DNA of 37,310 bases from a virus (Duplodnaviria > Caudoviricetes): IMG/VR virus record IMGVR_UViG_3300022666_000045, positions 1 through 37,310 of that record. The stretch is one strand, 5' to 3'. The position numbers and the translations under genes are program-made. The first letter of the stretch is position 1; each line of letters starts with the position of its first letter. The notes under the pieces are model-generated. The model was not told where the DNA came from. It saw only the letters and a list, made by a program, of their open reading frames with translations, and made no database searches. Shown in pieces: positions 6,551 to 37,310 of this stretch.

Positions 6551-6555
6551 CTAGT

Positions 6556-6618: not shown

Positions 6619-6645
6619 GTATAACCTGCTATTGCGTTGTATAAT
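6617..6645 (+). promoter_or_regulatory. Promoter for a leaderless ParB-like mRNA
   Basis: TTGTAT-17nt-TATAAT, with ATG 6 nt downstream and no SD. Confidence 0.6.
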
Positions 6646-6651
6646 CATCGT

Positions 6652-10177: not shown

Positions 10178-10184
10178 GGTATAC

Positions 10185-11585: not shown

Positions 11586-11597
11586 CGGAGGTGCAAA

Positions 11598-12125
11598 ATG
11601 TTTCGTGACATGCAGATTGCAGGCGAGGTGCTCAAACACGAGAACGGATACACGGGAGGTATCGAGTTTGTGCGCGGCCTGGTACACGAGGGCCGCATGA
11701 ATTACCTGAACGCCTATTTTGCCAGCGTCGCAAACGGCGGCACAGTTGACATTGCATTCGTGTGCGGCGCCGCTGTGCCGAGAGCTACAGCCGCCATCGC
11801 GACGGGAGGCGAGTGCAAAACGGAACTGTATCGCGGCGCGACTGTGACAGGCGGCACAGTCGTACCGATCTACAACGCAGACGACAATCTAGATTATTCC
11901 GGCTCTGCATCTGTCTATCACAGCCCGTCCGTTTCCGCCGCCGGATCACTGATTGCACAGGGCTATATCGCTGGAGGATCAGGCGGAAACGCCGTAGGCA
12001 ATGTCGTGCAAATGGACAGTGAGCGGGCGCTGAGGCCTGACACAACCTACCTGCGCCGGATAATCAATATGTCTGGAAAATCGATTGAAATTTGTTATTC
12101 GGTCGAATTCTACGAGGTGGCGTAA
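11598..12125 (+). CDS. hypothetical virion-associated protein (Gly/Ser-rich)
   Basis: GGAGGT RBS; located in the head module. Confidence 0.65.
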   Translation: MFRDMQIAGEVLKHENGYTGGIEFVRGLVHEGRMNYLNAYFASVANGGTVDIAFVCGAAVPRATAAIATGGECKTELYRGATVTGGTVVPIYNADDNLDYSGSASVYHSPSVSAAGSLIAQGYIAGGSGGNAVGNVVQMDSERALRPDTTYLRRIINMSGKSIEICYSVEFYEVA

Positions 12126-13118: not shown

Positions 13119-13142
13119 CAAACGTGATACAATAGATATACA
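13115..13142 (+). promoter_or_regulatory. Possible promoter for the scaffold/capsid genes
   Basis: TTGACA at 13115 and TGnTACAAT at 13125-13133; the pairing of elements is ambiguous. Confidence 0.4.
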
Positions 13143-13167
13143 CACATTGTACAGGAGCAAAACAAAC

Positions 13168-13683
13168 ATGGATCAACAGCCAGAGATTGGCAAAATCGAA
13201 GCGCCGGCAGGGATTGCCGCGCAAAACCCGCCGGCCGCACAGGCCACCGAGATGGTGAGCATGAGCGCCGCGGAATTGGAGCAGTTACGATCAGCACTGA
13301 AACAGGCGAACGCCGAGGCCGCCAAACGCCGGAAGGAATTGGAGGCGGTCGAGGCCGACCGGAAAGCGAAGGCTGAGGCCGAGATGACCGAATTGCAGCG
13401 CGCGCAGCAGCGCATGGCAGAACTGGAGCAAGCGCTCCGGCAACGTGACATCGCTGATTTGCAGCGCGCCGCAGCCGAGAAGGCCGGCATCCCTACCGCG
13501 CTCGCCTCCCGCCTGCACGGCGCAACCGCCGAGGAGATCGAGGCGGACGCCGCAGAGTTGGTGAAACTGCTCGCCATCAGCAAACCACAACCGCAGGCCG
13601 CAGCCGTGGCCGCGAATCCTGGCCCTGCCGCAACGCAGGTGCGGGAGAGCGACGCCGAACGCCGCCGCAGGTTGGGTATCTAG
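13168..13683 (+). CDS. Capsid scaffolding protein
   Basis: Coiled coil, ANAEAAKRR, and RLHGATAEEIEADA; precedes the capsid gene. Confidence 0.85.
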   Translation: MDQQPEIGKIEAPAGIAAQNPPAAQATEMVSMSAAELEQLRSALKQANAEAAKRRKELEAVEADRKAKAEAEMTELQRAQQRMAELEQALRQRDIADLQRAAAEKAGIPTALASRLHGATAEEIEADAAELVKLLAISKPQPQAAAVAANPGPAATQVRESDAERRRRLGI

Positions 13684-13692
13684 GAGCGTATT

Positions 13693-14568
13693 ATGACTAT
13701 GACGTACCAAATCAACCAATGGTCGGATGTCTCGGCCATTGCCAACGCGATGCAGGATGATGCGATTTTCATCATCCGTCAGACCGCGCTCATGCCGTCA
13801 CTGGTCACCGTGTTGACTGACGCCACCGGGATGAACCCGCGCAAAGGCTACAAATACGGGTCTGGCACTATCAGTCAGGTCTCGGACGGTGACGACCTGG
13901 CATCTCAGGCGTTCACCCCGGCGCTGGATCAGACCCTGACGCCGTACGAGTACGGTATGCAGTATTTCGTCACCGACGCCCGCGCCGAGAGCGAGCTGCC
14001 GGAGTCGATCATGACCGATGCCACCCGCGACTTGAGTTTTGCGGCCGTGGATAAAATTGAGACGCTGTTGTGCGGCGACATGGCGTCGCTGACCGGTGGC
14101 ACTGTCGGCACTGCCGGGACTGCCATCACCTGGGGCTATGTGAGCGCCGCGATTGCCCGCGCCCGCAATGCCAACAAATCGAACAGTGTTCCGCTGTCCG
14201 TCGTGATCCACGTCTACCAGGCCGCCGTGCTCGCCAAATCCGCCAGCATTGCTGGTGCAACCACGGTTGCCGCAACCGGTGTCGCCGATCAGGTGACTCG
14301 CCAGGGCATTACGCAGGCGTTCACGTTCATGGGGGTTCCTGTCTATCAGGTGTTCGCCTCGCCAGACGCCAATGACGATTTCACCGGTGGCGTATTCCCG
14401 CGTGAGGCGTTGGCGCTCGACTGGCGTCGGCCTGTGCGGATCGTCCCGCAGCGTGATGAGAGCCGGCGCGGTACCGAGTTCAACATGTCGCTCGTCATCG
14501 CTCACGGCGTCTGGCGCCCTGACCGTGGCGTCAAAATGGTATTCGACGCAACTGCGCCGACCAGTTAA
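13693..14568 (+). CDS. Major capsid protein
   Basis: Position, 291 aa, strong RBS, and C-terminal QRDES..HGVWRPDRGV pattern. Confidence 0.85.
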   Translation: MTMTYQINQWSDVSAIANAMQDDAIFIIRQTALMPSLVTVLTDATGMNPRKGYKYGSGTISQVSDGDDLASQAFTPALDQTLTPYEYGMQYFVTDARAESELPESIMTDATRDLSFAAVDKIETLLCGDMASLTGGTVGTAGTAITWGYVSAAIARARNANKSNSVPLSVVIHVYQAAVLAKSASIAGATTVAATGVADQVTRQGITQAFTFMGVPVYQVFASPDANDDFTGGVFPREALALDWRRPVRIVPQRDESRRGTEFNMSLVIAHGVWRPDRGVKMVFDATAPTS

Positions 14569-14582
14569 CAGGAGCGTGCAAA

Positions 14583-14942
14583 ATGGCTGATACGTTTGAT
14601 GTGAATGTTGTTTGTCTCGGCAACGTCGGCGCGCTCTCCAACGGGAGCCGCGCAATGGCGCAATTGCCTGCTACTGGCGGCGCGATCACCGTGCTCAATG
14701 CCAATGTTGTGTCTGGCGGAGCCGGCACGACCTCGCTGTACCTGGTCGACATGGGTACCGCCGGAACGTCGGTGAGCGGTACTATCGCCTCGTTTCCTGG
14801 GACTGTGGCCGCAGGGCCGAACACCGGCACGCTGGTTACCGCCGTCGTCGAGGGCGGGCACTGGATCGGGATTTACGAGGCGAATGCCGGGGCCGCTAAC
14901 GCGGTTACCGTGCCGTCATTCTCGTACCTGATGGGCAAATAG
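14583..14942 (+). CDS. Probable capsid decoration/cement protein
   Basis: Small beta-rich G/T/A protein directly after the capsid gene. Confidence 0.55.
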   Translation: MADTFDVNVVCLGNVGALSNGSRAMAQLPATGGAITVLNANVVSGGAGTTSLYLVDMGTAGTSVSGTIASFPGTVAAGPNTGTLVTAVVEGGHWIGIYEANAGAANAVTVPSFSYLMGK

Positions 14943-14961
14943 CCAATATCGGTAGTCCAAA

Positions 14962-15039
14962 ACGGGCGGCTAGCGTGCGCACGCGAAAACGGGACACCCT
15001 CCCCCGCTGCCGCCCGTCACACCGGAGGGATCGGAGGGT
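14962..15039 (+). promoter_or_regulatory. Structured leader with an anti-SD upstream of the glycosyltransferase
   Basis: Stem 14962-14975/15005-15017; the internal ACCCTCC (14996-15002) is complementary to the SD GGAGGGT (15033-15039). Confidence 0.55.
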
Positions 15040-15044
15040 ATCGT

Positions 15045-16223
15045 ATGAAAATCCATTGGCTTAGCAACGCACCCTGGGCCGCAACCGGCTACGGCAATCA
15101 AACCGCGGTGTTCGTTCCGCGCATCCACAAACAGCATCCCGTATCTATCACGGCATTTTATGGCCTGGATGGTGGCGTGCTCAACATGGATGGCGTCATG
15201 GTCTACCCGAAGGCCACGCACCCATACGGCCAGGACATTGCCGCCGCCAACGCCCGCAACAACGATGCGCGCGTCATTATTTCGCTGATGGACTCCTGGG
15301 TCTGTGATCCGCGCATGTTGCAGAGCGACGGTATGCTGTGGGCACCGTGGTATCCGGTCGATATGGAGCCTCTGCCGCGCCCGATCCGTGACAATATTTC
15401 TCAGGCATTTGCGCGCATCGCCATGAGCCGCTTCGGTGAGCGCATGACCAACGAAGCCGGGCTGAACTGTTATTATGTTCCGCATGGCGTTGACCAGCGC
15501 ATCTACCGCCCGCTACCGCGCGCTGAGGCGCTGGAACGGCTGCATTGGCCGAATGATCGGTTCACGGTCTCAATGGTCGCCGCCAATCAGGGAAATCCGT
15601 CGCGCAAATCGTTTCAGCAGGCGCTCGAAGCGTTTGCAATGCTGGCTGCAAAACACGATGATGCTCACCTGTACCTGCACACGAACAAATCAGAGCACGG
15701 GGAGCGCGCCGGGGTCAACCTGCCTGAGATCGTCCGGCATCTCGGCATCGAAAAACACGTCTCATTTCCTGACCAGTACGCCTACGCCATGAGCCTGTAC
15801 CCGCCATATTATCTGTGCGATGTATACAACGCGTCCGATGCGCACATGCTGCCATCGATGGGGGAGGGGTTCGGCATCCCAACGCTGGAGGCGCAGGCGT
15901 GCGGCTGCCCGGTGATCGTCGGCGATTGGACGGCATCGAGCGAACTGTGTTTTAGCGGGTGGAAAATCCCAAAGTCGGAGTCTACGCCGTTCTGGACGCC
16001 ACTGGCCGCGTATCAGTACATTGTGCACACCGGCGCACTGTACGAACGCCTTGAGGCTGCGTATCAGATGCGTGGCAATGAGGATTATCGCCGGCGCGCG
16101 GTCGATGGGGCCAAACCGTATCATGCTGATCGTGTGCTCGAAAAATACTGGCTGCCGGTGCTGGCCGATATTGAGGCCAACATCAACGAGCGCCTGACGT
16201 TTGACCAGGCGGTGCGGGCATGA
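15045..16223 (+). CDS. GT-B fold glycosyltransferase (GT4-like)
   Basis: TGYG, VPHGVD, RKS and PSMGEGFGIPTLEAQACGCPVI. Confidence 0.93.
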   Translation: MKIHWLSNAPWAATGYGNQTAVFVPRIHKQHPVSITAFYGLDGGVLNMDGVMVYPKATHPYGQDIAAANARNNDARVIISLMDSWVCDPRMLQSDGMLWAPWYPVDMEPLPRPIRDNISQAFARIAMSRFGERMTNEAGLNCYYVPHGVDQRIYRPLPRAEALERLHWPNDRFTVSMVAANQGNPSRKSFQQALEAFAMLAAKHDDAHLYLHTNKSEHGERAGVNLPEIVRHLGIEKHVSFPDQYAYAMSLYPPYYLCDVYNASDAHMLPSMGEGFGIPTLEAQACGCPVIVGDWTASSELCFSGWKIPKSESTPFWTPLAAYQYIVHTGALYERLEAAYQMRGNEDYRRRAVDGAKPYHADRVLEKYWLPVLADIEANINERLTFDQAVRA

Positions 16224-16834
16224 CGCAGAGTGATGCTATCCTGATCCAGCACGCCTACAGCGGTAGTGATTACAGCCGCATGTTGGCGCAATTCTACGCG
16301 CGCCATAGTGAGTATTGCGGCCTGTGGCATATTGACTATCAGTGCTATGTCGGCGATGTGATCCAGTTAGACCCGCGCCTGGGCGGTTGGGCAAAAATCC
16401 ATCTGATCCGTGAGGCGCTGGTACGCGGATACCAGCGCGTAATCTACTGTGACGCAGACGCGTTCGTGTATGATTTCCGGTCTGACATCCGCGACGGCTG
16501 CCCGCAAGCGCCTGGGTTTGGCGTGACGTGGCACGAGCGCCCGGAACGTCACTGGAACGTCGGGATGCTCTACGTCACCGCCGGACTGCAAACGAATGAA
16601 TTTATCCGCGAGTGGCTGCGGCGTGCTCCAGGTGAGGATGCATGGCATGAGCAGCGGATTTTCAATACGATGGCGACCGAGGATGCGTACCGCGAGACAG
16701 TATGCACTATTGCGGCGAAGTGGAATTCGTGCTATGCTAATAACGAGGTCGCTGACGCAGTCGTGAAATCCTATCACGGTGCAGGATCGGCGCAGGAACG
16801 GTTATCGCTCATGAGAGAGGCTGCAAAATGTTGA
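16220..16834 (+). CDS. GT-A glycosyltransferase (GT34/GMA12-MNN10-like)
   Basis: WAKI, YCDADA (DxD), WNVGM, WHEQ and WNS. Confidence 0.8.
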   Translation: MTQSDAILIQHAYSGSDYSRMLAQFYARHSEYCGLWHIDYQCYVGDVIQLDPRLGGWAKIHLIREALVRGYQRVIYCDADAFVYDFRSDIRDGCPQAPGFGVTWHERPERHWNVGMLYVTAGLQTNEFIREWLRRAPGEDAWHEQRIFNTMATEDAYRETVCTIAAKWNSCYANNEVADAVVKSYHGAGSAQERLSLMREAAKC

Positions 16835-17292
16835 AAACGATCGAACTCGGCTGCGGTGTGCATCCAACACCCGGCGCGGTGCATCATGATCGTATCCTGC
16901 ACGCCGCACACGTTGACATTGCACACGATCTGGATATGCTGCCGTGGCCGTGGAGCGACGGCGAGTTTGACAAAATATTGGCGCTGGATGTCATGGAGCA
17001 TTTGCGGCTGGACGTGCAAGCCTGGCTGGACGAGTGCTGGCGCATCCTGTCGCCTGGCGGCCTGCTCGTGCTGCGCCTGCCAGCCTGGGACAATCCAGTA
17101 TCATGGCGCGATCCAACGCATCGCCGGGTATTTCACCCGGAAACGTTCGACTACTGGGATCGTTCCAGGCCACTGCACCAGGATTACGGGTATTTCTATT
17201 TTTCCGAGTCGGGCCGCTGGTGGAGCGTGCAGAGCGTTAGCCGCGAAAACGGCGGCGATCTCGGTTACGTGCTACGCAAGGAGGCGTCATAA
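16828..17292 (+). CDS. Class I SAM-dependent methyltransferase
   Basis: IELGCG, HDLD..PWPW, DVMEHL, WRILSPGG and DPTH. Confidence 0.9.
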   Translation: MLKTIELGCGVHPTPGAVHHDRILHAAHVDIAHDLDMLPWPWSDGEFDKILALDVMEHLRLDVQAWLDECWRILSPGGLLVLRLPAWDNPVSWRDPTHRRVFHPETFDYWDRSRPLHQDYGYFYFSESGRWWSVQSVSRENGGDLGYVLRKEAS

Positions 17293-17408
17293 TGCCGTTC
17301 AAATCCAAAAAACAGCGTTCGTGGATGTATGCCAACATCCCGACGGTTGCCAAAAAGTGGACGAAAAAGTACGGATCTAAAATCCGTAAATCCGGCGGGC
17401 GCAAATGA
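17292..17408 (+). CDS. Small basic phage protein (38 aa; not in the ORF track)
   Basis: MPFKSKKQRSWMYANIPTVAKKWTKKYGSKIRKSGGRK; AGGAGG RBS; coupled at both ends. Confidence 0.8.
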   Translation: MPFKSKKQRSWMYANIPTVAKKWTKKYGSKIRKSGGRK

Positions 17409-18001
17409 CTGCACGAACCGGGATGGCAAACCTGATTGCCGATCTGCGCGGCCTGACCGATGCCGGTACGGCTGATTGGACATCTGGCACGGTAGTGTAT
17501 TGGGATGATGACCAGTTACAAAACGTGCTCGACCGCAACCGCATCGACCTGTATTTCTCGGCGATCAATCCGATTGCGCAGACCGTGAGCGGCGGGTCAA
17601 CCGTCTATACTGAGTATCGTGCGCAGTATGTCAACATCGAGAGCGGCACAGCCGCCATGTATTTGCAGGACGCTATCGGCGCGACTGTGCCAGCCACAAA
17701 CTACACGATGGATTACCGGCGCGGCGCATTCACGTTCACAGCCGACCAGGGCGGAACAATCTACTACCTGACCGGTCGGGCGTATGATCTGTACGGAGCG
17801 GCCGCCGACGTCTGGTCGATGAAGGCGGCCAACGCCGCAAAACGGTTCACATTCTCGACAGATAATCACAAGGTAGAGGCCGGGCAGTTGGTGCAGGTGT
17901 ACAATGCTCAGGCGCAATATTACCGCTCGATGTCGATGCAGAGCACCAGCAGCATCGACCTGACGCGCGGCGATGAGGTGACGTGCTATGACCTGGATTA
18001 G
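17405..18001 (+). CDS. Probable head-tail adaptor
   Basis: Synteny; DDDQLQ..L and YGAAADVW. Confidence 0.65.
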   Translation: MTARTGMANLIADLRGLTDAGTADWTSGTVVYWDDDQLQNVLDRNRIDLYFSAINPIAQTVSGGSTVYTEYRAQYVNIESGTAAMYLQDAIGATVPATNYTMDYRRGAFTFTADQGGTIYYLTGRAYDLYGAAADVWSMKAANAAKRFTFSTDNHKVEAGQLVQVYNAQAQYYRSMSMQSTSSIDLTRGDEVTCYDLD

Positions 18002-18359
18002 CTCCGCCGATCTGGACTATATGCGCAGTATGATCAACGGCGGGATGCTGCCCGACACGTGTAATATTTTGGCGGCTGCACTGGTCGCGGATGGTGAGGG
18101 CGGCGCAACCACGACTTGGGGCACAGCCTACGCAGGCGTTGCCTGCCGGTTGGATGCGAAATCCGGCGACAAAACAACGCAAAACGAGCGCCTGACGCCG
18201 TATCATACGTATCAATTGACGCTGCCGTACAATGCCAGCATTTCGACCGCAAACCGCGTGCAGGCTGGCGGCTATCTGTTCGATGTGGTGACCATTGACC
18301 CGCCTGGAAAATCCTGGTCTGCATGTGTGCGCTGTGAGTTGGAGATCGTGAATGGCTAG
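17988..18359 (+). CDS. Head closure / head-tail joining protein
   Basis: Synteny; DGEGG..TW, LTLP and NRVQ. Confidence 0.7.
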   Translation: MTWISSADLDYMRSMINGGMLPDTCNILAAALVADGEGGATTTWGTAYAGVACRLDAKSGDKTTQNERLTPYHTYQLTLPYNASISTANRVQAGGYLFDVVTIDPPGKSWSACVRCELEIVNG

Positions 18360-18774
18360 GCAAATTGTGCTCGATACGTCCGAACTCGACCGCATTGCAG
18401 CGCAGCTAGGCGCAAACGTACAGCGCGTTATCGCATCGCTGGCGTTTGATATCGAGGCGGGCGCAAAACAGGCCGCACCTGTAGATACATCGGCGCTGCG
18501 CAACTCAATCTATACCAATGTTGCCGGCAACAACGGCTATTCTCAGGCGTCCGGCGCTGCTCGTGGTGCGCGCCCGGATGTGCAGACCGAACCTATCCCG
18601 CAGCCGTCCGGCAAAATCATTGCCACGGTCGGCGCGTGCGTCGAGTATGCGGAGCATGTTGAGTTAGGCGGATCACATTCAGCCGCGCAGCCGTATCTAC
18701 TGCCGGCGTGTGAGGCGGTGTACCGTGATCTGGCGAACGGCGAGACCTGGCGGTCTGTGGTAGGGGAGGGATAA
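18352..18774 (+). CDS. HK97 gp10-like tail completion protein
   Basis: APVDTSALRNSI, YAEHVELG and AQPYLLPA. Confidence 0.9.
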   Translation: MARQIVLDTSELDRIAAQLGANVQRVIASLAFDIEAGAKQAAPVDTSALRNSIYTNVAGNNGYSQASGAARGARPDVQTEPIPQPSGKIIATVGACVEYAEHVELGGSHSAAQPYLLPACEAVYRDLANGETWRSVVGEG

Positions 18775-19187
18775 TGGCAATAGGATATGATCTGTACCCG
18801 GCGATCTACTCCAAACTGACAGGATCAACGGCGCTGACGGCGCTCCTGTCTGGCACAACGGCGGTGTACGACAAACAGGCTCCAATCGGCGCGGCGCTGC
18901 CGTATGTGGTGTACTCGATTGCGGCGGGCGGGCCGGATAATATTTGTCCATCGCCGCTTGAGAATGTGGTTGTATCCGTGCGGGCCTGGGCCGAGACCGG
19001 CAAACAGGCGCGGGCGATAGATCAACAGATTGACAACCTGCTACGCGGCACGAAGCTGACCATGACCAATGGTTGGGTGAATTTCTGGTCGGCTCGCGAG
19101 CAGGATATAGAGATGGTGGAGACCAGCACTAGCAATCAGGTGCGATACATGGCTGGCGGTCTCTATCGGTTCAGGTTCGACAAATAA
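18774..19187 (+). CDS. Tail terminator (DUF3168-like)
   Basis: IYSKL..VYD.QAP..LPYVV; synteny. Confidence 0.8.
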   Translation: MAIGYDLYPAIYSKLTGSTALTALLSGTTAVYDKQAPIGAALPYVVYSIAAGGPDNICPSPLENVVVSVRAWAETGKQARAIDQQIDNLLRGTKLTMTNGWVNFWSAREQDIEMVETSTSNQVRYMAGGLYRFRFDK

Positions 19188-19199
19188 CGAGGTGCAAAA

Positions 19200-19610
19200 A
19201 TGACTGATGGTTATGCTGGTTCTGTGAGTTACGCGGCGTTCATCGCCGCGGGTGGCGGTACGACTGTGCTCACCGGGAAATTCCGCGAGCAATCGCTCAC
19301 CCCGTCTGTGGCTCTGATCGATCAGACCGCGGGGGCGGACGCGACAAAATCCTATATCCCGAACGTCACCGACGGCCAATACTCGCTGTCCTGCCTGGCG
19401 CAGACTGGCGGTAGCGCGTTCGTCAATGCGATGGTCGCCGGCGCTCAGGGTACGTTGGTGCTCGGCTTCGAGGGCACCGCCGCCGGCAAGCCGAAAAAGA
19501 CCATTCCGGTTATCTCGCTCGGCGCGAAGTTGGACATGCCGTACAACGACGTGGTTACCGTGTCGGTCGATTTTCAATTCAACGGTGCGGTCGTGGATGC
19601 GTCCTGGTAG
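19200..19610 (+). CDS. Major tail tube protein
   Basis: Synteny; C-terminal DVVTVSVDFQFNG. Confidence 0.75.
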   Translation: MTDGYAGSVSYAAFIAAGGGTTVLTGKFREQSLTPSVALIDQTAGADATKSYIPNVTDGQYSLSCLAQTGGSAFVNAMVAGAQGTLVLGFEGTAAGKPKKTIPVISLGAKLDMPYNDVVTVSVDFQFNGAVVDASW

Positions 19611-19620
19611 GCGGTGACGT

Positions 19621-19857
19621 ATGCCAAAAATCGGAGGGTATGATATCACCATCGACATGAACGCCATCACCATCCGCGAGTATCGCCGGCTGTTCGCAGA
19701 CGACAAACCGGACGGATATGATGACGAAATCCTGGCGCGCGCGTGCAATCTCACCGTTGATCAGATTGGCGAGCTCGGCCAGCATGATTACCGGCTGCTG
19801 GTGCGCGAATTCTGGCGCGTCGCTCGCGATCCGCTGGCGAGCGATGAAAAAAACTAG
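19621..19857 (+). CDS. Tail assembly chaperone (gpG-like)
   Basis: Located between the tube and TMP genes; ends in the slippery A AAA AAC. Confidence 0.8.
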   Translation: MPKIGGYDITIDMNAITIREYRRLFADDKPDGYDDEILARACNLTVDQIGELGQHDYRLLVREFWRVARDPLASDEKN

Positions 19858-20045
19858 GTAGGCGAGTTTGGGAATATCTATCCGGGTACTCCCAACTCGC
19901 CCCGCTCGAATTCGTGATCTGGAACATGGCGGAGCATTTCCATTGGACGCTGGACTACATAGAGTCGCTGCCGGTGGAACGGCTGAGAGAGTACGAACGC
20001 ATCCAGGACGCCAGGAACAAGGCCGGGAAGGGCAGGCGTAAATGA
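19848..20045 (+). CDS. -1 frameshift extension of the tail chaperone (gpGT-like)
   Basis: The -1 frame is open to TGA 20045: LGRRVWEY..AEHFHWTLDYIESLP..RRK. A hairpin at 19861-19901 begins 6 nt after the heptamer. Confidence 0.85.
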   Translation, partial: KKLGRRVWEYLSGYSQLAPLEFVIWNMAEHFHWTLDYIESLPVERLREYERIQDARNKAGKGRRK

Positions 20046-21898
20046 GCACAAAAATTGCAACCCTATTCGCCGAGATCGGCGCCGACACCACAAAATTTGA
20101 CCGTGGTGCTCGTGATACGAAGCGCGGCCTGTCTGATCTGCGTGACGGGTTCGAGGCGTTGACCGGCGTCACTGTCGGCGCGGCTGCCGGCATCGGCGCG
20201 CTGGTCGCCGGCCTGAAATACTCCACCGCTCAGGCGATGGAGAGCGAGAAGGTCATGGCCGCCACAGAGGCGACCATTCGCGCGACCGGCGGCGCCGCCG
20301 GCATGACGGCTGATGAAATCTCAGACCTGGCGAGTTCCGAGAGTCGTCTGACCGCCATCGATGACGAGGTCATCCAGTCCGGCGCGAATATGCTGCTCAC
20401 GTTCAAAAACATTGGCGAGAACACGTTCCCACGCGCTACCAGGGCTATGGAGGACATGGCCGCTGCAATGGCGAACGGGAACATCGCGCAACTTGATTTG
20501 CAATCTACCGCGATTTTGTTAGGCAAGGCTCTCAACGATCCGATTGCTGGCATTGGCGCGCTGACAAAAAACGGCGTCACACTGTCAGACGTGCAGAAGC
20601 AACAGATACGTGATTTCATGGCGGTAAACGACGTCGCCAGCGCTCAGGCCGTCATCCTGGCCGAACTGGAAAGCGAATTCGGCGGGATGGCCGAGGCGAT
20701 GGGAGGCACGAATCTCGGCAAAATTCAGAAGGCGAAAAACGAGCTTGACAATCTTGCGGCGACCATCGGCGAAAAATTGCTGCCGTTTCTCGGTGATGCG
20801 GCTGCCGGCGCTGCAACGCTGATGAGCGCTCAGGACAGGTTGAGCAGCGCATTTCAGGCGCAGGAACAGCGCACACGTGAGACGGCCGGATCATACGAGG
20901 AATACATCACCGAGGTGCAGCGGGCCTATGCTGCGTCTCATCTGTACGGCGTGCGACAGGAGGTGTTGGTCAGGCAGGGTGACGCGCTGAGTGAGGCCAA
21001 TTTCAACGCCGCCAAGGCTGGTCGTGAGGCGAAGGAGAGTTTTGCCGGCATGGCCGGCGCGGCGGCGATGATGAAACAGCCGATGCAGGACGCCGCGGAA
21101 GAGGCCGACATCGTCAAAGGCAAAATGTCCGAATTAGGGCTGTTTATGGCGGGCGACGTTGGGCAATCGTTTGTTGATTTTTCGGACAAAATGAGAAATC
21201 TCGGCGACCAACAGAATGAGATCGTGACCAAAATCTCCGAACTGGAGTCAAAAGCCTGGCTGACGCCGGAGCAGCGCCAGCAGCTTGAGGATTTGCGCGG
21301 CAAATTGGACGACAATAAAAACGCCGTCAAAGAAGCCGCGGACGCATTCGAGAAGGAGTCAAAACGCATCGTATTCTCGATCCTCCAGCAGCGCCTTGCG
21401 TCTGATGGCCTGACAAAAACTGAGGCAGACGCGCTGGTGACGGTCGCGCAAAAATTCGGCCTGATCGACCAGGCAACAAAAATGACGTATGATGCAATTG
21501 GCGACGTTGTGACACAACTGGACGAGGGCAAAATCTCAGCCGATGGCATGGCCGACGCAATCGAGCGTATCAGCGACAAGAACGTGAAAATCGGCATCGA
21601 ATACACAGAGAGCGGGGTATACAACCCATACGGCAACCGCGTAGATGTGCGCGGCGGCGCAGTGTCCGGCGAAAATGCCAATGGCGGCGTGATCATGGCA
21701 GGAGAAACGCGGCTCGTTGGCGAGCGCGGGCCGGAGATGATCTCGACAACCGCACACGCGCAGGTGACGACAGCAGAGACGCTCTCAGGCCAGCAGCAGG
21801 GCACAGGCGGCGCCGGAGGCCAGATCATCATCTACGGCAATCCTACCATCTCACTGTCCGGCGACACTCAAACGATGTTGCAGCAGGTGACTGTATGA
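20042..21898 (+). CDS. Tape measure protein (618 aa)
   Basis: IATLFAEIGADT N-terminus, LGKALNDPIAGIGALT, helical Ala-rich body and LVGERGPE. Confidence 0.92.
   Translation: MSTKIATLFAEIGADTTKFDRGARDTKRGLSDLRDGFEALTGVTVGAAAGIGALVAGLKYSTAQAMESEKVMAATEATIRATGGAAGMTADEISDLASSESRLTAIDDEVIQSGANMLLTFKNIGENTFPRATRAMEDMAAAMANGNIAQLDLQSTAILLGKALNDPIAGIGALTKNGVTLSDVQKQQIRDFMAVNDVASAQAVILAELESEFGGMAEAMGGTNLGKIQKAKNELDNLAATIGEKLLPFLGDAAAGAATLMSAQDRLSSAFQAQEQRTRETAGSYEEYITEVQRAYAASHLYGVRQEVLVRQGDALSEANFNAAKAGREAKESFAGMAGAAAMMKQPMQDAAEEADIVKGKMSELGLFMAGDVGQSFVDFSDKMRNLGDQQNEIVTKISELESKAWLTPEQRQQLEDLRGKLDDNKNAVKEAADAFEKESKRIVFSILQQRLASDGLTKTEADALVTVAQKFGLIDQATKMTYDAIGDVVTQLDEGKISADGMADAIERISDKNVKIGIEYTESGVYNPYGNRVDVRGGAVSGENANGGVIMAGETRLVGERGPEMISTTAHAQVTTAETLSGQQQGTGGAGGQIIIYGNPTISLSGDTQTMLQQVTV
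20538..20670 (+). repeat. 133-bp segment with an inverted copy at 31312-31444
   Basis: Manual alignment gives 117/133 identical. Confidence 0.95.
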
Positions 21899-23838
21899 AA
21901 CTACAGGTAGTATCCTATCGTGGTGCGACCATAACCAGCAGCACGCTATCGGCATGGCTGCCGGTGAGCGCACCGCCAGCGGCGCAAACTCAGGTGATCG
22001 AGATCAACCGCAGCGGCAAATATCCTGCCTATGCCGGCAAATCGTTCCAGTCCTGGACGTTTCCGGTGCAATTCGGCATGACCGGCACGCTGCCTGCGCA
22101 GCAGGTGGATAGCCTGCGCCAGATGTTCGATCTGGAAAACCAGACGCCTGGAACGCTGGTATTCCAGGACGCGGCGGACTCGAATAAACAATATTACGTC
22201 ATGGCAGTTCCTGTGTCTATGCCGTCGTGGGAATATCGGTTCGCACAGGTCAACATGAACGCCAGTGATCCAACATGGCGCAGCATGGACACCTACGCGG
22301 GTACGATTACGGCTGCCGGGAGTGTTGCGTCTGGCACGCTGACGGTTGGCGGAAATCTGTACACCAGGCCGACGATCAGTATCACGCCATCGTCTGCCGG
22401 CACAGTCGGCTATGCCTACCGCGAGTATGTGACGGTGATCAACCAGGCTCCTGTGCCGTTCCAAAATCTCCCGTATGATCTAGGCGGCACAGCCGGATAC
22501 GATACGGCGACGCTGGTTTCTGCCGGAAAAATGCAGGCCACCTGTGCCGATCTGCGCGTGATGGTGGATGGCGTCGAGACAGACTATTGGCTCGACGCGC
22601 CGAACTCCAGCACAACGCATGTTTGGTGCAATCTATCGCTTCCTGGCGGCACAACCTGCGCGCTCGGCACAGCGATTACATCCGGCGGCACAGTGACAAC
22701 GCTCGGAGTCAGGGTTGACGCCACCAACAGCCGGGCGTTTGACGTGTTCCCGTCATCTGGAATTGTACGCATTGACTCAGAGGAATTCGCCTACACCGGC
22801 AAGAGCAAGACCAAAACATCCTACACGCTGACCGGTGTCACTCGCTCGGTGCGCGACACCAGCGCCGGCAATCACAGCGCGAATGCCACGATCTACCAGG
22901 TGGCGCACGACATCCAATTCCTGTACGGCAACCCATCCGCGTCTGCAATCTCGGCGGACGACGCACGCAAACCGATCATCGAATTGACATCGACGAATGC
23001 GGCATGGACATTTGCGAATTTCCAGAGCGCCGATAAACTGCGTTCGGGTGGCTGGACATCGGCCATCGTGACATCTGCCAGCCAGACGGCCGCAGACCTG
23101 ACGCAGCGATCAGACACCTACACGGCCACGCAGGAGACAGACGCAGACCCGGCAAGCGTCATGGGAATGACGGCCAGGGCCTACCAGAAAAAAGCGACCT
23201 GGGCGGCTGAGTCATGCACATTGGCCTGGTCAATCTATCACCCGGCAGGTATCACGCAGGTGGCGGCGTCTGGGAGCAAATACCGCAATGCCACGTCCTG
23301 GCCGTCTACGGCGGCACTGCAAAAATCCACCACCGGCGCTACGTGGACAAATGTTGTCAACCAGACAACGCCCGGAACGGTATCCACCTGGACGGCCTGG
23401 ACGTTCTCTGGGACGTCTCTAGGAGGCACGGTGAATTACATCCGGTTTGCGTTTGCCGGCGCGATTGCTGCCAGCGCCAACGCGCGGGCGTCGTTCGAAA
23501 TCTCGGATGTGACATTGACCATGCCTGCATCGCGTGTGCCGGTAGTCTACCGTAACAGCGAGCAGACCAACTACACACTCACAGCGCGTATCACGAACGT
23601 TACAACCGGCGCTTACATCGACCTCAACTATGGCATGGCGACCGGGAACACGATCACCATCGACACCGAGAACCGCACCGCCACGTACAACGACATCAAT
23701 GCCATTGGCGGCGTCTCGCCGTCTCGCGTCGATGAATGGCTAAAACTCGTACCAGGCGCAAATGAGATTGCCTGGACGACTGAGGCAACAGACGGAACAG
23801 CATCGCTGGTATTTTCGTGGAGGGAGCGAAAAGCATGA
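21895..23838 (+). CDS. Distal tail (Dit-like) protein with large Ser/Thr-rich insertion
   Basis: Follows TMP; C-terminal WLKLVPGANEI..FSWRER; DUF2341-like DLRV..DYW. Confidence 0.75.
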   Translation: MKLQVVSYRGATITSSTLSAWLPVSAPPAAQTQVIEINRSGKYPAYAGKSFQSWTFPVQFGMTGTLPAQQVDSLRQMFDLENQTPGTLVFQDAADSNKQYYVMAVPVSMPSWEYRFAQVNMNASDPTWRSMDTYAGTITAAGSVASGTLTVGGNLYTRPTISITPSSAGTVGYAYREYVTVINQAPVPFQNLPYDLGGTAGYDTATLVSAGKMQATCADLRVMVDGVETDYWLDAPNSSTTHVWCNLSLPGGTTCALGTAITSGGTVTTLGVRVDATNSRAFDVFPSSGIVRIDSEEFAYTGKSKTKTSYTLTGVTRSVRDTSAGNHSANATIYQVAHDIQFLYGNPSASAISADDARKPIIELTSTNAAWTFANFQSADKLRSGGWTSAIVTSASQTAADLTQRSDTYTATQETDADPASVMGMTARAYQKKATWAAESCTLAWSIYHPAGITQVAASGSKYRNATSWPSTAALQKSTTGATWTNVVNQTTPGTVSTWTAWTFSGTSLGGTVNYIRFAFAGAIAASANARASFEISDVTLTMPASRVPVVYRNSEQTNYTLTARITNVTTGAYIDLNYGMATGNTITIDTENRTATYNDINAIGGVSPSRVDEWLKLVPGANEIAWTTEATDGTASLVFSWRERKA

Positions 23839-24893
23839 CGATCAGTCACAGTATTTCGATTTACGACCATGACGGCTACGAACTGGCGGAAATTGAGGCC
23901 AGCATCGAGGTAAACTGGATTCTGAACGAGTACGGCAATGCATCGTTTACACTGCCTGTTCGGGATCCAAAATGCACAGAAGTAAATTTGCGCTACGGCA
24001 ATTTCGTCCTGGTGCGTTTCCGCGACGAAAACAACGCGCCCGTTCTGCCGGATTGGTGCGGTATGATCGACACGCCGCGAGAATGGCTCAACCAGCAGGT
24101 GAAAATATCCTGTTACTCTGCGGAGTACATCCTGACCAAACGCACCGGGACGCGCGATGAGACTGTGACCGGTGTAGCTGGTGCGCTGTTCCAGCGCTGC
24201 ATCAACCGCGCTAACGAGGATGCGGATACACTGATCCGGCTCGGAAACGTCTACGGCGGCGGTAGCGAGCGACAACTGACGTTCCACTACCAGCAGATTT
24301 ACAAGGCCGTCACCGGCGACGGTACGGGCGGATTGGCGCAGCGGGCTGAGAATGATTTTGAGATCGTTCCAGACGTGCAGCAGTCCGGGAGGTTACAGTT
24401 TTTGGCGAACTGGTATGAGCGCGCCGGGGTAGACCGGCTGACACAGTTGATTGAGGGCTACAATATCGAACGAACGACCGTGCGCGAGCAGGGCCGGCTG
24501 ACCAACGATCTAGTTGGCTACGGCGACGGCGCAACATGGCCAGACAGGCCTGTGTACCACGCGAAAGACCAGGAGTTAATCGGCAAATATGGGCTGATGA
24601 AAGACAGTTTTTCCGCCGGTGCTTCCGAGTACGGCACGGTGCGGGTCAACACAGAGCAGGAGATTGCGCGCCGCAAACAGCCTACATTGTCTCTGCGCCT
24701 GGCGGCGCTGGATGTCGCCGATACGTACGCAAATATCCGTTTGGGCGACCGGCTGCCGCTGCGCCTGACTACTGCCGGATTTGCGGACGCAAACGGCGAG
24801 ATTGGCCTGTCTACCGTTGTGCGAATCGTCGGCATGAAATACAATACAGATGCACACAAACTAGAGTTGACGTGCGAGGAGGATAACGAATAA
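23835..24893 (+). CDS. Baseplate hub/tail protein (Gp37-like)
   Basis: LNEYGNASFTLP, WCG, and IRLGD..RIVG; synteny. Confidence 0.7.
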   Translation: MTISHSISIYDHDGYELAEIEASIEVNWILNEYGNASFTLPVRDPKCTEVNLRYGNFVLVRFRDENNAPVLPDWCGMIDTPREWLNQQVKISCYSAEYILTKRTGTRDETVTGVAGALFQRCINRANEDADTLIRLGNVYGGGSERQLTFHYQQIYKAVTGDGTGGLAQRAENDFEIVPDVQQSGRLQFLANWYERAGVDRLTQLIEGYNIERTTVREQGRLTNDLVGYGDGATWPDRPVYHAKDQELIGKYGLMKDSFSAGASEYGTVRVNTEQEIARRKQPTLSLRLAALDVADTYANIRLGDRLPLRLTTAGFADANGEIGLSTVVRIVGMKYNTDAHKLELTCEEDNE

Positions 24894-26110
24894 TGGCGGA
24901 TGTCGATACCAAATCTGGAGAGCAGACGAACCAACTGCTAGCCGTGATCAATGAGCTACGCGCTCGCGTGGATGCATTGGAGCGCCGACCGGTGCAGGCA
25001 GATAGCCTGGATCATCTGGCTGAGACGCTCGGCACAATTGAGGCCGGGGAATTGCGCTGCCATGCTGACCCGGCTGACCCTCACGCACCCGGAGATGGTT
25101 TCAGCGGCGTGCGTGTGTCCGGCGCTCCGATGTCCGAATATTCGGATGCGCCAAATATCGCAGGCGTCGAGAATGACGTACCAACATTCTGGCTGCGCTC
25201 GGCGGATGGCGCTGCGTCATTCCTGGGCGGTAGTGCGGTGTTGTCTGTAGATGGCGTCAATATTACCGGAGCCAACACACCATACACGCATACGGTCGGG
25301 AGCGGGGCATCGCAAAGAACTGGTATCCTAACTATGACTAGTTCTGGCGGAGTTACCGAGTGGGGGCTGCGATATAAAAAACCGGTAGCCGCTGTCGCCC
25401 AGATCGACGGCTCTACAACCTGGACGACATCAGGCACAACGATTTCAGCGAGCGGGCAGAATGTAACTGCGATCACAAACGAAATTTCAGGCGGAGACGC
25501 AACCGTGACGGCTGTCACCGGTCTAATGCGCACCTATCCGGGTGCGCAAAACTCGTACAGCGTCACCGTCAAACGCGGTTTGGCCGCATATACTCCAGAT
25601 TGTCTGCTAGACATACAGGCTATATGGTATACGCGATCTGATTTGACAATTCCTCTCAGCGCGTCATCTATCGTGTACCTGGATGATGACGATATCCCGG
25701 CGTCGCCAACGGTGTTCACAGCCACAGCAACAACGCCGGTTTTAGCGAATTACGTTCAGTTTCAGGTACGAGTTACGCACGACATTAGCGGATACAATCA
25801 ATCTGTCGTGGTCACTGATCTGTCTGCGACGCGTGAGGCGTGCGAGCAGATCATCTCGCTGACGTTCTCCGACCGGGGTACGAAGCTCTCAAATGCGCCG
25901 TTGCAGATCGAGAAATTGACGGACTCGGATTTGAGCGACCTGTTATATACGCCGGTTGGCGGATACGCGAGCGTTTATGCCAAAACGGATACGCGCCTAT
26001 ATTACGATCAGCAGATCAACGACCTCGGAAACACAGATGAACGGCGTATCGCTGACATTGACGATATTGACGATCTGCTCATGAATATGGCATTTTGGTC
26101 TGGAATATAG
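24893..26110 (+). CDS. Minor tail/fibre protein
   Basis: N-terminal coiled coil LRARVDALER followed by beta-rich domains. Confidence 0.65.
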   Translation: MADVDTKSGEQTNQLLAVINELRARVDALERRPVQADSLDHLAETLGTIEAGELRCHADPADPHAPGDGFSGVRVSGAPMSEYSDAPNIAGVENDVPTFWLRSADGAASFLGGSAVLSVDGVNITGANTPYTHTVGSGASQRTGILTMTSSGGVTEWGLRYKKPVAAVAQIDGSTTWTTSGTTISASGQNVTAITNEISGGDATVTAVTGLMRTYPGAQNSYSVTVKRGLAAYTPDCLLDIQAIWYTRSDLTIPLSASSIVYLDDDDIPASPTVFTATATTPVLANYVQFQVRVTHDISGYNQSVVVTDLSATREACEQIISLTFSDRGTKLSNAPLQIEKLTDSDLSDLLYTPVGGYASVYAKTDTRLYYDQQINDLGNTDERRIADIDDIDDLLMNMAFWSGI

Positions 26111-26118
26111 GTACAGAT

Positions 26119-26451
26119 ATGGCAATCACTCAGGCAATGCAAACCGGCAATCTCGACGGCACAAACGCCGTGGACATCCTGGACGCTCCGGCGTCCGGTG
26201 CGCGGCGGATCACGCGCGCAATCATCATCACCAATCTGGACACTGTACCTGTGGATTTCACGCTCTACCGCGACAAGAACGGCACGGATCACACTATCGT
26301 ACTGGGGGTTAGCATCACTACCGGGCGTTCGTTCATCATCGAAATTCCGTTCGTGCTCTCGGCCACAGACGAGAAATTGCAAGGCGTTCTGGCGGCCGTC
26401 AAAACCACGACAAACCCGACGTTCACCGTATCGTATGCGGAGGAGTCGTAA
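26119..26451 (+). CDS. Minor tail-associated protein
   Basis: Beta-sandwich-like 110 aa; in operon. Confidence 0.6.
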   Translation: MAITQAMQTGNLDGTNAVDILDAPASGARRITRAIIITNLDTVPVDFTLYRDKNGTDHTIVLGVSITTGRSFIIEIPFVLSATDEKLQGVLAAVKTTTNPTFTVSYAEES

Positions 26452-26452
26452 A

Positions 26453-27163
26453 ATGCCCATCGTCATGTTTGACAAGACTTCCGGGCAGGTGATCGAAAAG
26501 CGCGGCATGTTTTTTATGGATTTGAAACGCATCATGATTGCCAACACCGGCTACGGCAACAGCGGATCATCTGCTGGCGTTTCGTCTCTCACGTGGAATC
26601 ACACGGTCGGGAGCGGGCCAAACCGTATTCTGACCGTCGCGGTATCGGTATACAAATCATCCGGTGTTGTTGCGCCGACGTCGGTAACCTATGGCGGCGT
26701 GGCGATGACGAAAATTGCCGATGTGACCAGCAGCGTTGTTAATGCCAGTCTGTGGTATCTGGTCGCTCCAGCGTCTGGAACCGCTCAGGTGGCATGCTCG
26801 TTCTCGACCACGATCATTGGCGGCGGGGTCAGTGCGGATTACACCGGCGTGCACCAGACTGCACCGCTCGGCACAGCCGCCACGGCCACCGGCAACACAA
26901 CCACCGCAACCGTAGCCGTTACCGCCGCTGTCGGTGATCTTGTGATCGATGCACTGGCAAAACGAGACACCACAGAAGCTCCGACATGTGACGCATCTCA
27001 AACGCTGGCATACCAGACCGTGAGCGCATACGTCACCGCCGGGAGCAATGCTCATGCCGGTATGAGCTATGAGGATGGCGCCGCGTCGGTTACAATGTCC
27101 TGGACGTGGCCGACCAATAACCGGTATTGGTCTATTATCGGTGTCGCGCTCAAACGAGCATAA
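26453..27163 (+). CDS. Ser/Thr-rich beta-sandwich tail/receptor-binding protein
   Basis: GAGGAG RBS; HTVGSGPNRILTV..VTYGGVAMT..WYLVAPASG. Confidence 0.7.
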   Translation: MPIVMFDKTSGQVIEKRGMFFMDLKRIMIANTGYGNSGSSAGVSSLTWNHTVGSGPNRILTVAVSVYKSSGVVAPTSVTYGGVAMTKIADVTSSVVNASLWYLVAPASGTAQVACSFSTTIIGGGVSADYTGVHQTAPLGTAATATGNTTTATVAVTAAVGDLVIDALAKRDTTEAPTCDASQTLAYQTVSAYVTAGSNAHAGMSYEDGAASVTMSWTWPTNNRYWSIIGVALKRA

Positions 27164-28273: not shown

Positions 28274-28427
28274 CAGGGGGTGAGGAGAAACGATGGATGA
28301 TATCTGACTGGCTCAGGCGCCTTGCTCAACGAGCGCTATACCAAATTGGATAACTACATCCCGTTACCGCTTGGAGACCTTGTATCCTTTCCAGACCGCA
28401 AACAGTTTACACCTGAGCCATGCGGTG

Positions 28428-28498
28428 AGCCGCCAGCAGGGTTCGAACCTGCATCATCCGGGTACAGACCGGACGCTCTGCCATTGAGCTATGGCGGC
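28428..28498 (-). tRNA. tRNA-Thr(TGT)-like with atypical anticodon loop; CCA not encoded
   Basis: GCCGCCA/TGGCGGC acceptor, GCTC/GAGC D-arm, TCCGG-TCTGTAC-CCGGA anticodon arm and GCAGG-TTCGAAC-CCTGC T-arm. Confidence 0.85.
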
Positions 28499-28503
28499 TG
28501 ATA

Positions 28504-29190
28504 CTACCAGTTTATATTTGCGAAATCTTCCCAGGCGGCAATGATGTTATGACAACTCCGGCGGAAGGCTTCATAATTTGCGTCATTTCCCCAACCGATA
28601 TCGCCGACTTCGTACATGTTTACCCAATGACCGTGTTGGCCTTTCTTAGATCTCCAAAATCGGCAACGATGAGCCATTTTTCCAGCCATATTTCCATCCG
28701 CGGATATAACCCCTGGAAGATGAGCGCAGATTTTCATCTGCGCGTGTGGCGATCCGCCCAACAGGTGAACCGGCCAATCGAGAAAATCCCACAACGGCAA
28801 TTCAGAACCTCCGAATTTTGTCGGAACGCTATACGCTAAAACGACCTGTTTTCCCCCAATCGTTTTAGGGAGTTTTCTCACGCCGCCCTGTACCTTCGGG
28901 ACAATCAAGACCCGCTGAACGTATTGCGCCGCCTCCTCTGCCCATGACAAAACCTCGTCCAATTGATATTCGTACTCCCAATCAAGGACGGTTGCCATTT
29001 CAGGACGGAGATCCGCCAGGGATGCCATATACCGTTCGCGGTTTGGGTTTCTCCAATCCTGGTCGGCGAAGTGGATGGGATGGTAAACTGTGCCAGGCAA
29101 TTGAGCGCCGAGCTTATATCCTGATTCATAGGCAATATCAGAAAGGCGCCTATTTCCACCGTAACAAAATATCAGAGTTGGAGCCGCCAT
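28504..29190 (-). CDS. DUF6610-like TIM-barrel protein related to tRNA-guanine/DpdA transglycosylases
   Basis: FADQDW, TVLDW, LIVPK, VHLLGGSP and ISADGN; GGAGG RBS before ATG 29190. Confidence 0.65.
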   Translation of the reverse strand: MAAPTLIFCYGGNRRLSDIAYESGYKLGAQLPGTVYHPIHFADQDWRNPNRERYMASLADLRPEMATVLDWEYEYQLDEVLSWAEEAAQYVQRVLIVPKVQGGVRKLPKTIGGKQVVLAYSVPTKFGGSELPLWDFLDWPVHLLGGSPHAQMKICAHLPGVISADGNMAGKMAHRCRFWRSKKGQHGHWVNMYEVGDIGWGNDANYEAFRRSCHNIIAAWEDFANINW

Positions 29191-29480
29191 AATATTAACC
29201 TCCGCCCGGACGGGGAGACTTCTATTCCTTCGCATTCGAACCCATGCCGCCTATACCATTCGTTTGCTGGTAAATCCGTTGGGCATTTTGCGAATAAACT
29301 CACTGCCCCCGCTGTTGTTCGCAGAATATCGAGCATCTTCCGCGCGGAACCGGGCTTTGTGCTGATAATTTCCCTGATGGTCAGCTGACCATCGCGACGC
29401 AGGTGCCAACGGCAAAATCCGCCATCGATTAAAAGCAATTCTCCGCGCTTAAAGCTTTCGTGCAACGCTTCAAAGATCAT
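29172..29480 (-). CDS. GNAT-family acetyltransferase (minimal)
   Basis: LTIREI..PGSARKML and AKCPTDLPANEWYRRHGF (GNAT motif B). Confidence 0.8.
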   Translation of the reverse strand: MIFEALHESFKRGELLLIDGGFCRWHLRRDGQLTIREIISTKPGSARKMLDILRTTAGAVSLFAKCPTDLPANEWYRRHGFECEGIEVSPSGRRLILWRLQL

Positions 29481-36046: not shown

Positions 36047-37310
36047 TCCGCATGGCAGACCTATTCTGCGGCGCGGGTGGCACATCCACCGGAGCCGTTC
36101 ACGCAATCCGAAAACTCGGCCTCGATATCGATCTTACGGCCATCAATCACTGGTCGAAGGCCATCGAGACCCACGCCGCAAATCACCCAGGCGCTCGCCA
36201 CCTGTGCGAGAGCCTGGATAACGTTGACCCCCGAAAATTATTTCCAGGCGGCTATCTCGATCTGCTGGTAGCATCGCCGGAATGCACACACCACAGCATC
36301 GCTCGCGGCGGTCGCCCGATCAATGATCAGTCCAGGGCCTCGGCCTGGCACGTGCTGCGTTGGGCCGAGGCGCTCTACATCGAAAACATCCTGGTCGAGA
36401 ACGTCCCAGAATTTATAACCTGGGGGCCACTCGACAAAGATGGCCGTCCGATCAAGAGCCGTAAGGGCGAGACATTCCTGGCGTTCATCCAGGCGCTGCG
36501 CTCCCTGGGATACAACGTCGAGCACCGGGTGCTGAACGCTGCCGATTACGGCGACCCGACAACCCGCCAGCGGTTGTTCATTCTCGCCCGGCGCAGCAAT
36601 CCGGTCAGGTGGCCGGAGCCAACGCACTCAAGGAGCGGAGATTTGGGCTTCCTCGGAAGCCACCGCCGCTGGAAAGCGGCCCGTGATGTCATCGACTGGA
36701 GCATTCCCGGCGAATCGATCTTCACCAGGAAAAAGCCCCTGGCCGAGAACACCATGCGCCGCATTCGCCGCGGCCTTGAGAGGTTTGGGGGATACCCGTT
36801 CGTCATCGGACAGCAAAGCTGCTCCGCCCCCCGCGGCGTAGACCAGCCCGTGCCGACCGTCGCCGCCGCTGGCGCAATCTCTCTGGTAGAGCCGTTCCTG
36901 GTCGAGTACCACGGCGATGACAGAGGCCGCGAGCGCATCCGCTCGCTGAATGATCCACTACCGACCCAGGACACATCAAACCGATTCGCTCTATGCCAGC
37001 CGTACATCGTCGCCCTGAACCACGGTCAGGACGACTGCCGCTCATACTCGCTCGATGCGCCGATGCCGACTATCACCAGCGTGGACGCCTGGGGCCTGGT
37101 AGAGCCGTTCCTGGTGCGCTACAACGGCACCGGGGCCGCGGTCAGCGTGGATGAGCCAATGCCAACGCTCACCGCCAAAGACCGCTTCGGCTTGGTGATC
37201 CCGCTCACCGATGGCGGGCAGGCTGTGGTAGACATCCGCTTCCGCATGTTGCAGCCGCACGAACTCGCCGCTGCCATGTCGTTTCCCGCGGACTACCGCT
37301 TTGCCGGCAA
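36043..37310 (+). CDS. DNA cytosine-5 methyltransferase, 5' part (continues across the junction to 209; about 449 aa in total; absent from the ORF track)
   Basis: Manual translation from ATG 36043 gives MIRMADLFCGAGG (motif I), VASPECTHHS (motif IV), ILVENVPEF (motif VI) and TTRQRLF (motif VIII). It is in the same frame as 9..209. Confidence 0.93.
   Translation, partial: MIRMADLFCGAGGTSTGAVHAIRKLGLDIDLTAINHWSKAIETHAANHPGARHLCESLDNVDPRKLFPGGYLDLLVASPECTHHSIARGGRPINDQSRASAWHVLRWAEALYIENILVENVPEFITWGPLDKDGRPIKSRKGETFLAFIQALRSLGYNVEHRVLNAADYGDPTTRQRLFILARRSNPVRWPEPTHSRSGDLGFLGSHRRWKAARDVIDWSIPGESIFTRKKPLAENTMRRIRRGLERFGGYPFVIGQQSCSAPRGVDQPVPTVAAAGAISLVEPFLVEYHGDDRGRERIRSLNDPLPTQDTSNRFALCQPYIVALNHGQDDCRSYSLDAPMPTITSVDAWGLVEPFLVRYNGTGAAVSVDEPMPTLTAKDRFGLVIPLTDGGQAVVDIRFRMLQPHELAAAMSFPADYRFAG
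37184..37310. repeat. Terminal direct repeat, copy 2
   Basis: Identical to 1-127. Confidence 0.97.

Follow-up and report, generated by a model that had tools for sequence, protein, structure and literature searches.

A candidate system for acetylated 7-deazaguanine in phage DNA: a DpdA4-family barrel genetically coupled to a small GNAT-fold protein

DpdA4 was named by Cui et al. 2023 from HVTV1_69 on the basis of an HHpred match to TGT, and the carriers given there are Halovirus HVTV-1 (gp69), HF2-type singletons, and the mycobacteriophage Knocker (PMC10516641). In HVTV-1, about 30% of G is described as dPreQ1, and DpdA4 is the only DpdA listed; a host DpdA is an alternative source of this modification. 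In the account of Cui et al., activity is shown for no member of the DpdA4 family, the tests in E. coli being unsuccessful (PMC10516641). Orion is described as a phage with DpdA only and no modification. For the aminomethyl group of preQ1 in phage DNA, two additions are described: DpdM provides the methyl group of mdPreQ1, and DpdN provides the formyl group of fdPreQ1 (PMC10516641). PaMx11 gp48 is described as a GNAT-like 5-NmdU N-acetyltransferase that makes 5-AcNmdU in phage DNA (Lee et al., PMC8989533), and the BRC defence systems as containing a GNAT and a TGT, sometimes fused, with a DNA self-mark proposed as their product (PMC12839542). In the literature searched, Cui et al. was the only work on DUF6610 and DpdA4, and the word 'acetyl' is absent from the main text of the preprint. 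Neither acetylated preQ1 nor a pairing of DpdA4 with a GNAT was found in that literature, although TGT-like and GNAT genes may already be linked in Iyer et al. 2013, and the BRC supplements may show the same subfamily.

We examined a viral record of 37,310 bases, which in its whole length is hereafter referred to as the window. It carries a 127-base direct terminal repeat and is, for this reason, probably a whole genome, whereas its completeness by CheckV, 56%, is at odds with this reading. The gene set is siphovirus-like (terminase, portal, tail genes, RecT, primase, and DnaB). The cassette under study is summarized in Table 1. The first-pass annotation had described overlapping GNAT and 228-aa genes, a tRNA beginning 5 nt past the stop codon of the latter, and a composition richer in AT than that of the structural genes, and all of these were verified: the two minus-strand frames overlap by 19 bases, the 5-nt spacer is present, and the GC content is 0.504 in the two genes vs 0.583 in the region 8771-27163. 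Only 3% of the 977-base windows are as low in GC as the GNAT-barrel genes, and the GC content is also low at 3001-8000 (0.524). The GC3 of the cassette is 0.51-0.54 vs 0.63-0.75 in most core genes. A scan for promoters and terminators gave a result at chance level.

Table 1 Features of the cassette in the window
Feature	Position	Strand	Remark
GNAT-fold ORF, 102 aa	29172..29480	-	short motif-A (CoA loop) form; predicted N-acyltransferase
DpdA4 (DUF6610) TGT-superfamily barrel, 228 aa	28504..29190	-	predicted DNA guanine transglycosylase
tRNA-Thr(UGU)	28427..28498	-	neighbour, no conserved part of the system

The 228-aa protein had been proposed to be a TGT/DpdA-like barrel. The fold assignment stood, and the family is not a new one: the protein matches DUF6610 (PF20314) with an E value of 1.5e-36 and 126.4 bits against a cut-off of 27, and it shares 33% identity with HVTV1_69 over 174 residues (pairwise E 1e-23; tblastn 8e-17). 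It is thus a DpdA4-family protein with a TGT-like fold, and it is predicted to be a DNA guanine transglycosylase. Its homologues number 1,663 at 90% clustering and 744 at 50%. When the AlphaFold model (pLDDT 96.7) was compared by VIA with 48,161 chains, the top match was the archaeosine TGT 1iq8 (Z 15.8, rmsd 3.2, 219 residues aligned), followed at a margin of 1.5 by PdxJ (14.3). Further scores were 13.9 for hexulose-phosphate synthase, 13.8 for Cap10, 13.1 for bacterial TGT, 12.7 for QTRT2, and 12.0 for DpdA, and four TGT-family chains besides 1iq8 are found in the top 13. The structural comparison with TGT/DpdA that had been suggested as a check therefore came out favourably in VIA, but not in Foldseek, in which TGT was mixed with pyruvate kinase and the latter ranked first. 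At the sequence level, hhalign against a TGT profile made from only three bacterial TGTs was not significant (E 0.11 and 0.12), and a PDB sequence search gave no match to the barrel. PF01702 (bacterial tRNA TGT) matched nowhere in the phage genome, while it matched all 14 control genomes.

The motifs that had drawn attention to this barrel, FADQD, VHLLGG, and SADG, are located at residues 41-45, 141-146, and 163-166, respectively. Five residues, all at or just past strand ends in the model, are almost invariant among the best 150 diverse representatives, when counted in those covering each site: D43 (135/135), D70 (148/148), K99 (149/150), H142 (144/144), and D165 (141/142). They occur in the same order as D73, D122, K154, H226, and D248 of Cap10, a correspondence inferred from the order and the strand position. 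In TGTs, two base-reading Asp, a His or Tyr, and the nucleophilic Asp stand at the strand ends, and D43, D70, H142, and D165 would presumably occupy these places.

The call of the small gene as a GNAT was also borne out by its fold. The AlphaFold model of the 102-aa protein (pLDDT 95) has only GNATs among the Foldseek and VIA matches listed, the best having a Z of 12.7 and an rmsd of 1.8 over 102 residues. The top matches include many protein N-terminal or lysine acetyltransferases, and AcrVA5, an anti-CRISPR of 95 aa, matches at Z 10.3. No match to this copy was given by the Pfam, PHROG, and NCBIfam profiles; it has 794 homologues, and the distant partner GNATs score with Pfam acetyltransferase families.

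The acyl-CoA loop of GNATs, motif A, has the form R/Q-x-x-G-x-G. In the phage protein, the first Gly is retained and the following two positions are altered, and the loop is four residues shorter than in the long-loop relatives. Among 74 partner GNATs, the loop is short by four residues in 41, of the usual length in 30-31, and of another kind in 3; most of the short-loop GNATs fall in one derived group. The phage copy has non-consensus residues at three otherwise conserved sites (H24, A45, and G46), while K65-C66-P67, H26, R28, and E37 are invariant and family-specific, and the C-terminal N..Y..GF motif is retained. In 24 short-loop genes, the differences from the phage copy are 0.31, 0.22, and 0.61 at codon positions 1, 2, and 3, as expected for purifying selection, and short-loop GNATs thus look to be under such selection. 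The short-loop and long-loop GNATs have the same neighbours.

The GNAT and the barrel are a real, well-coupled two-gene module. Their being a functional pair had been proposed from the window alone, with gene-neighbourhood analysis as the check, and this analysis revealed tight coupling in both directions. Among 123 barrel clusters (formed at 90%, with the window and three named phages left out), a GNAT is found within 2 kb of the barrel in 80; in the 56 well-flanked clusters, it is found in 36, including five fusions, and not in the other 20. Conversely, a barrel lies just downstream of the GNAT in 14 of the 15 viral GNAT loci. Neither gene occurs in any of the 21 RecT control loci. Fused GNATs are carried by 22 of the best 150 diverse barrel representatives (4 N-terminal, 18 C-terminal), and a Pfam GNAT match was obtained for half (18) of the 36 long barrel proteins scanned. 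Repeated fusion in both orders, together with the reverse linkage, fits consecutive steps on one substrate. The tree distances of the two proteins are also correlated (Spearman 0.61 for 70 pairs; highest value in 999 shuffles, 0.40), for which shared descent alone would also be sufficient.

Several loci deserve separate mention. At 6001-6306 of L163 lies a GNAT with no barrel in its own locus, the sole case of this kind. A tandem double GNAT-barrel pair, which may be an assembly artefact, lies at 368-2914 of L052. In L013, L024, and L047 (cluster 15; e.g., L024 6734-7435), genes for Mom-like acyltransferases are near the barrel (PF25680, E 7e-4, below the cut-off). Second DpdA-like barrels, called by motif and matching neither Pfam nor NCBIfam, occur near DpdA4 at L054 5105-7184, L011 3432-4139, and L087 914-1480. 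In the mycobacteriophage Rinkes (L009 1-2560), gp1 is a ParB-DUF6610 fusion, gp2, annotated as GTP cyclohydrolase, scores as QueF, and gp3 is a second DpdA.

As for the precursor, FolE, QueC, and QueD had not been seen in the window, and a source outside the phage genome had been supposed. Both points agree with the profile searches: among FolE, QueD, QueC, QueF, TGT, QueT, and YhhQ (QueE being outside the set), none matched in the 37-kb genome. By score, its single radical SAM gene belongs with the B12-type families. In the relatives, the commonest other neighbours of the barrel are the transporters QueT and YhhQ/Vut_1, an assignment confirmed by Pfam for all 12 chosen representatives. A transporter is found in 35 of the 123 clusters (QueT 18, YhhQ/Vut_1 18); in 27 clusters it lies within 300 bases of the barrel, and in 14 between the GNAT and the barrel. 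In the RecT control loci, a small and unmatched set for which the search profiles were themselves derived from these neighbours, none of 21 has QueT or YhhQ. Of 49 viral records, only 5 have a transporter as judged by Pfam; QueF is present in only one of the 49 and QueC in two. Both transporters are linked to preQ0/preQ1 salvage in the sources consulted, in which YhhQ is also described in some DpdA phages.

The nature of the base matters here, since preQ1 is a primary amine, as a GNAT requires, and preQ0 is not. In the complete phage G007, the GNAT-barrel pair is accompanied by adjacent QueF and YhhQ genes, without QueC or QueD; this points to preQ1, with preQ0 presumably imported and then reduced. 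In G043, the pair is accompanied by FolE, QueE, QueD, and QueC, with no match to QueF. This fits preQ0, the amine-free base, unless the host reduces preQ0, and thus counts against a strict preQ1 reading. In G039, QueC is beside a separate DpdA-like gene. QueF is present in all five of the DpdA4 viruses with Que genes among the rows consulted in the table of Cui et al. (PMC10516641).

The tRNA had been regarded as part of the cassette, and this was rejected: no tRNA was found within 300 bases downstream of the barrel in any of the 107 related loci. The gene itself, called by ARAGORN and matching Rfam RF00005 with 67.3 bits, folds well and has a UGU anticodon, C33, C38, and no encoded CCA. U at position 33 is near-universal among tRNAs; here it is replaced by C in the Rfam alignment. 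A 22-base stretch of the tRNA had no exact match in the viral contigs, and no close match to the tRNA was found in the viral contigs or the sampled genomes. The best matches among host tRNAs reach about 80% and are of other tRNA types, so that there is no sign of an attachment-site copy. This tRNA-Thr(UGU) is most plausibly a phage tRNA in its own right; changes in the anticodon loop have been associated with the idea of evading host tRNA nucleases.

A Chloroflexota host is weakly hinted at by two observations: 5 of the 15 barrel homologues in prokaryotic assemblies are in Chloroflexota bins, and a comparison of the RecT gene with 301 genomes of Chloroflexota, the sole phylum compared, gave matches in 3 at 67-70% DNA identity. 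No spacer-like match was obtained in the search for a host by DNA match, and no RNA was listed among the sequencing runs. In a sample of 151 Chloroflexota genomes (including one unpublished genome, G092), TGT exceeds the cut-off in 131 and QueF in 57; the former number makes a Q precursor pool likely in the possible host phylum. Regarding the DNA itself, eight composition measures applied to 33, 17, and 15 loci gave no convincing signature of modification. Palindromes of 6 bases are strongly avoided in the phage genome (O/E 0.62), no less than in the control loci, and this equality argues against strong protection by modification.

Other genes of the window are also worth recording. A PAPS-reductase/DndC-like gene at 783-1937 (+) (TIGR03183, E 1e-33, below the cut-off) possibly has a second DNA-modification function. 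At 6637-8444 (+), immediately upstream of the terminase, a ParB-like gene is followed by the B12-type radical SAM gene, the GC3 of which is low (0.51). Genes for a GT4 glycosyltransferase, a nucleotide-diphospho-sugar transferase, and a methyltransferase, possibly for virion glycosylation, are inside the head-tail block at 15045-17292 (+). A partial match to a C5 cytosine methylase (129 aa) is at 36238-36627 (+), where the gene may be split or run on in another frame.

The pair is adjacent or fused across dozens of phages, often accompanied by transporters of queuosine precursors, and preQ1 insertion followed by acetylation is therefore its likely task. As a mechanism, DpdA4 would, after replication, excise guanine of the phage DNA via D165 and insert host-derived preQ1 in its place; the GNAT would then acetylate the free aminomethyl group, giving N-acetyl-preQ1 in DNA. 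This base is predicted to protect the DNA from restriction and from enzymes recognizing plain 7-deazaguanines. We infer the catalysis, the DNA target, the preQ1 base, the acetyl group, the acylation after insertion, and the protection. For salvaged preQ1 inserted by DpdA4 and N-acetylated by the GNAT, we consider the chances about even. DpdA4 is sometimes beside a second DpdA (Rinkes, Knocker, and G039), so that its role may differ.

Other explanations divide the work of the two proteins differently. DpdA4 could insert plain preQ1 or preQ0, with the GNAT having a protein as its substrate in the manner of AcrVA5, be it the barrel itself, an enzyme of the host Q pathway, or a protein of host defence. 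This is unlikely, although the GNAT model does resemble AcrVA5 and many protein acetyltransferases, the modification of host proteins by phage GNATs is described as common, and QueF is missing in G043: the fusions in both orders and the reverse linkage in 14 of 15 loci fit successive steps on one substrate, and other phages are described as methylating or formylating the same amine (PMC10516641). The pair might instead work on the free base or on tRNA, the GNAT acetylating the preQ1 pool, or the barrel editing or binding host tRNA or, like Cap10, a deazaguanine-tagged protein; translation would thereby be steered, or a deazaguanine-based defence blunted. The best fold matches are indeed a tRNA enzyme and Cap10, which is described as binding deazaguanylated protein, and QueT and YhhQ are described as Q-salvage transporters. 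We nevertheless regard this as distinctly improbable in view of the dPreQ1 described in the DNA of HVTV-1, the closest characterized context, the ParB fusion of Rinkes, the frequent occurrence of DNA methylases and replication genes as neighbours of the barrel, the length of the 228-aa barrel, which is far below that of tRNA TGTs, and the lack of linkage to tRNA genes (0/107).

The cassette of this phage may also have been recently gained or be partly decayed, with little or no modified DNA, either because the host lacks preQ1 or because the short-loop GNAT is poor at acyl-CoA binding. The low GC3, the absence of a transporter gene, the limited number of QueF-positive genomes (57/151) in the possible host phylum, the Orion precedent, the consensus departures A45 and G46, and the palindrome data are all compatible with this. 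It is set against by the intact frames of both genes, which retain every residue of the catalytic positions, by codon-position differences that fit purifying selection on the short-loop GNATs, and by the Q precursor pool that TGT in 131 of 151 genomes makes likely, and its probability is small. Finally, the same two-step route may be followed by a short-loop GNAT that transfers another acyl group, for instance an aminoacyl group, from a donor other than acetyl-CoA, so that a different hypermodified preQ1 would result. The derived clade has been conserved despite the loss of four residues of the CoA pyrophosphate loop, its K65-C66-P67, H26, R28, and E37 are invariant and family-specific, and Mom-type GNATs are described as transferring non-acetyl groups. 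However, the profile scores place the long-loop relatives with ordinary acetyltransferase families, the two loop forms share their neighbours, and the N..Y..GF motif is kept; this exchange of the acyl group is accordingly the least probable of the explanations weighed here. A broader form of the idea, which we offer as very much a long shot, is that a widespread phage system based on salvage, made up of a transporter, DpdA4, a GNAT, and optionally QueF, writes the undescribed base N-acyl-preQ1 into DNA, and that the short-loop clade, including this phage, changed the donor and adds a group larger than acetyl.

If the insertion and N-acetylation of preQ1 were true, a further 7-deazaguanine base, with a definite mass to look for, would be added to those in DNA. 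The known range of DpdA4, so far a few viruses of haloarchaea, now takes in a large clade of phages in which the precursor seems to be scavenged, and hundreds of compact DpdA4 enzymes of predicted activity are now available from non-halophilic viruses. In this clade, two unrelated transporter families occupy the same gene slot.

In comparison with the described systems, the enzyme family is known, while the DpdA4-GNAT pairing and its predicted product are undescribed; PADLOC and NCBIfam gave no match for the GNAT or the barrel. Cap10 of type IV CBASS shares the TGT barrel (Z 13.8) and the D, D, K, H, D layout, but it is described as binding a deazaguanylated protein and requiring Cap9 and CdnD (bioRxiv 10.1101/2025.04.06.647259). 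The BRC systems, compared here by their description, are cellular seven-gene defence loci for which dPreQ0 is proposed and, in the relevant section, acylated preQ1 is not. PaMx11 gp48 is alike in function as described, being a GNAT-like enzyme that acetylates a phage DNA base with an aminomethyl group, but it belongs to a thymidine pathway without a transglycosylase. DpdM and DpdN are alike in that a second enzyme caps the aminomethyl group of preQ1; they are, however, described as a methyltransferase and a PurN-like formyltransferase that accompany DpdA1/2/3 and full synthesis clusters, whereas in the phage examined here DpdA4 and salvage go together with a GNAT fold. The closest relative is the DpdA4 of HVTV-1, which is of the same Pfam family and keeps D43, D70, H142, and D165, with H at the position of K99 in the phage barrel clade. 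The GNAT profile matched none of the HVTV-1, HF2, and Rinkes loci compared. Compared with the DpdA4 of HVTV-1, the present form is compact (228 aa), belongs probably to a bacterial phage, lacks Que synthesis genes in its genome, and is coupled to a GNAT.
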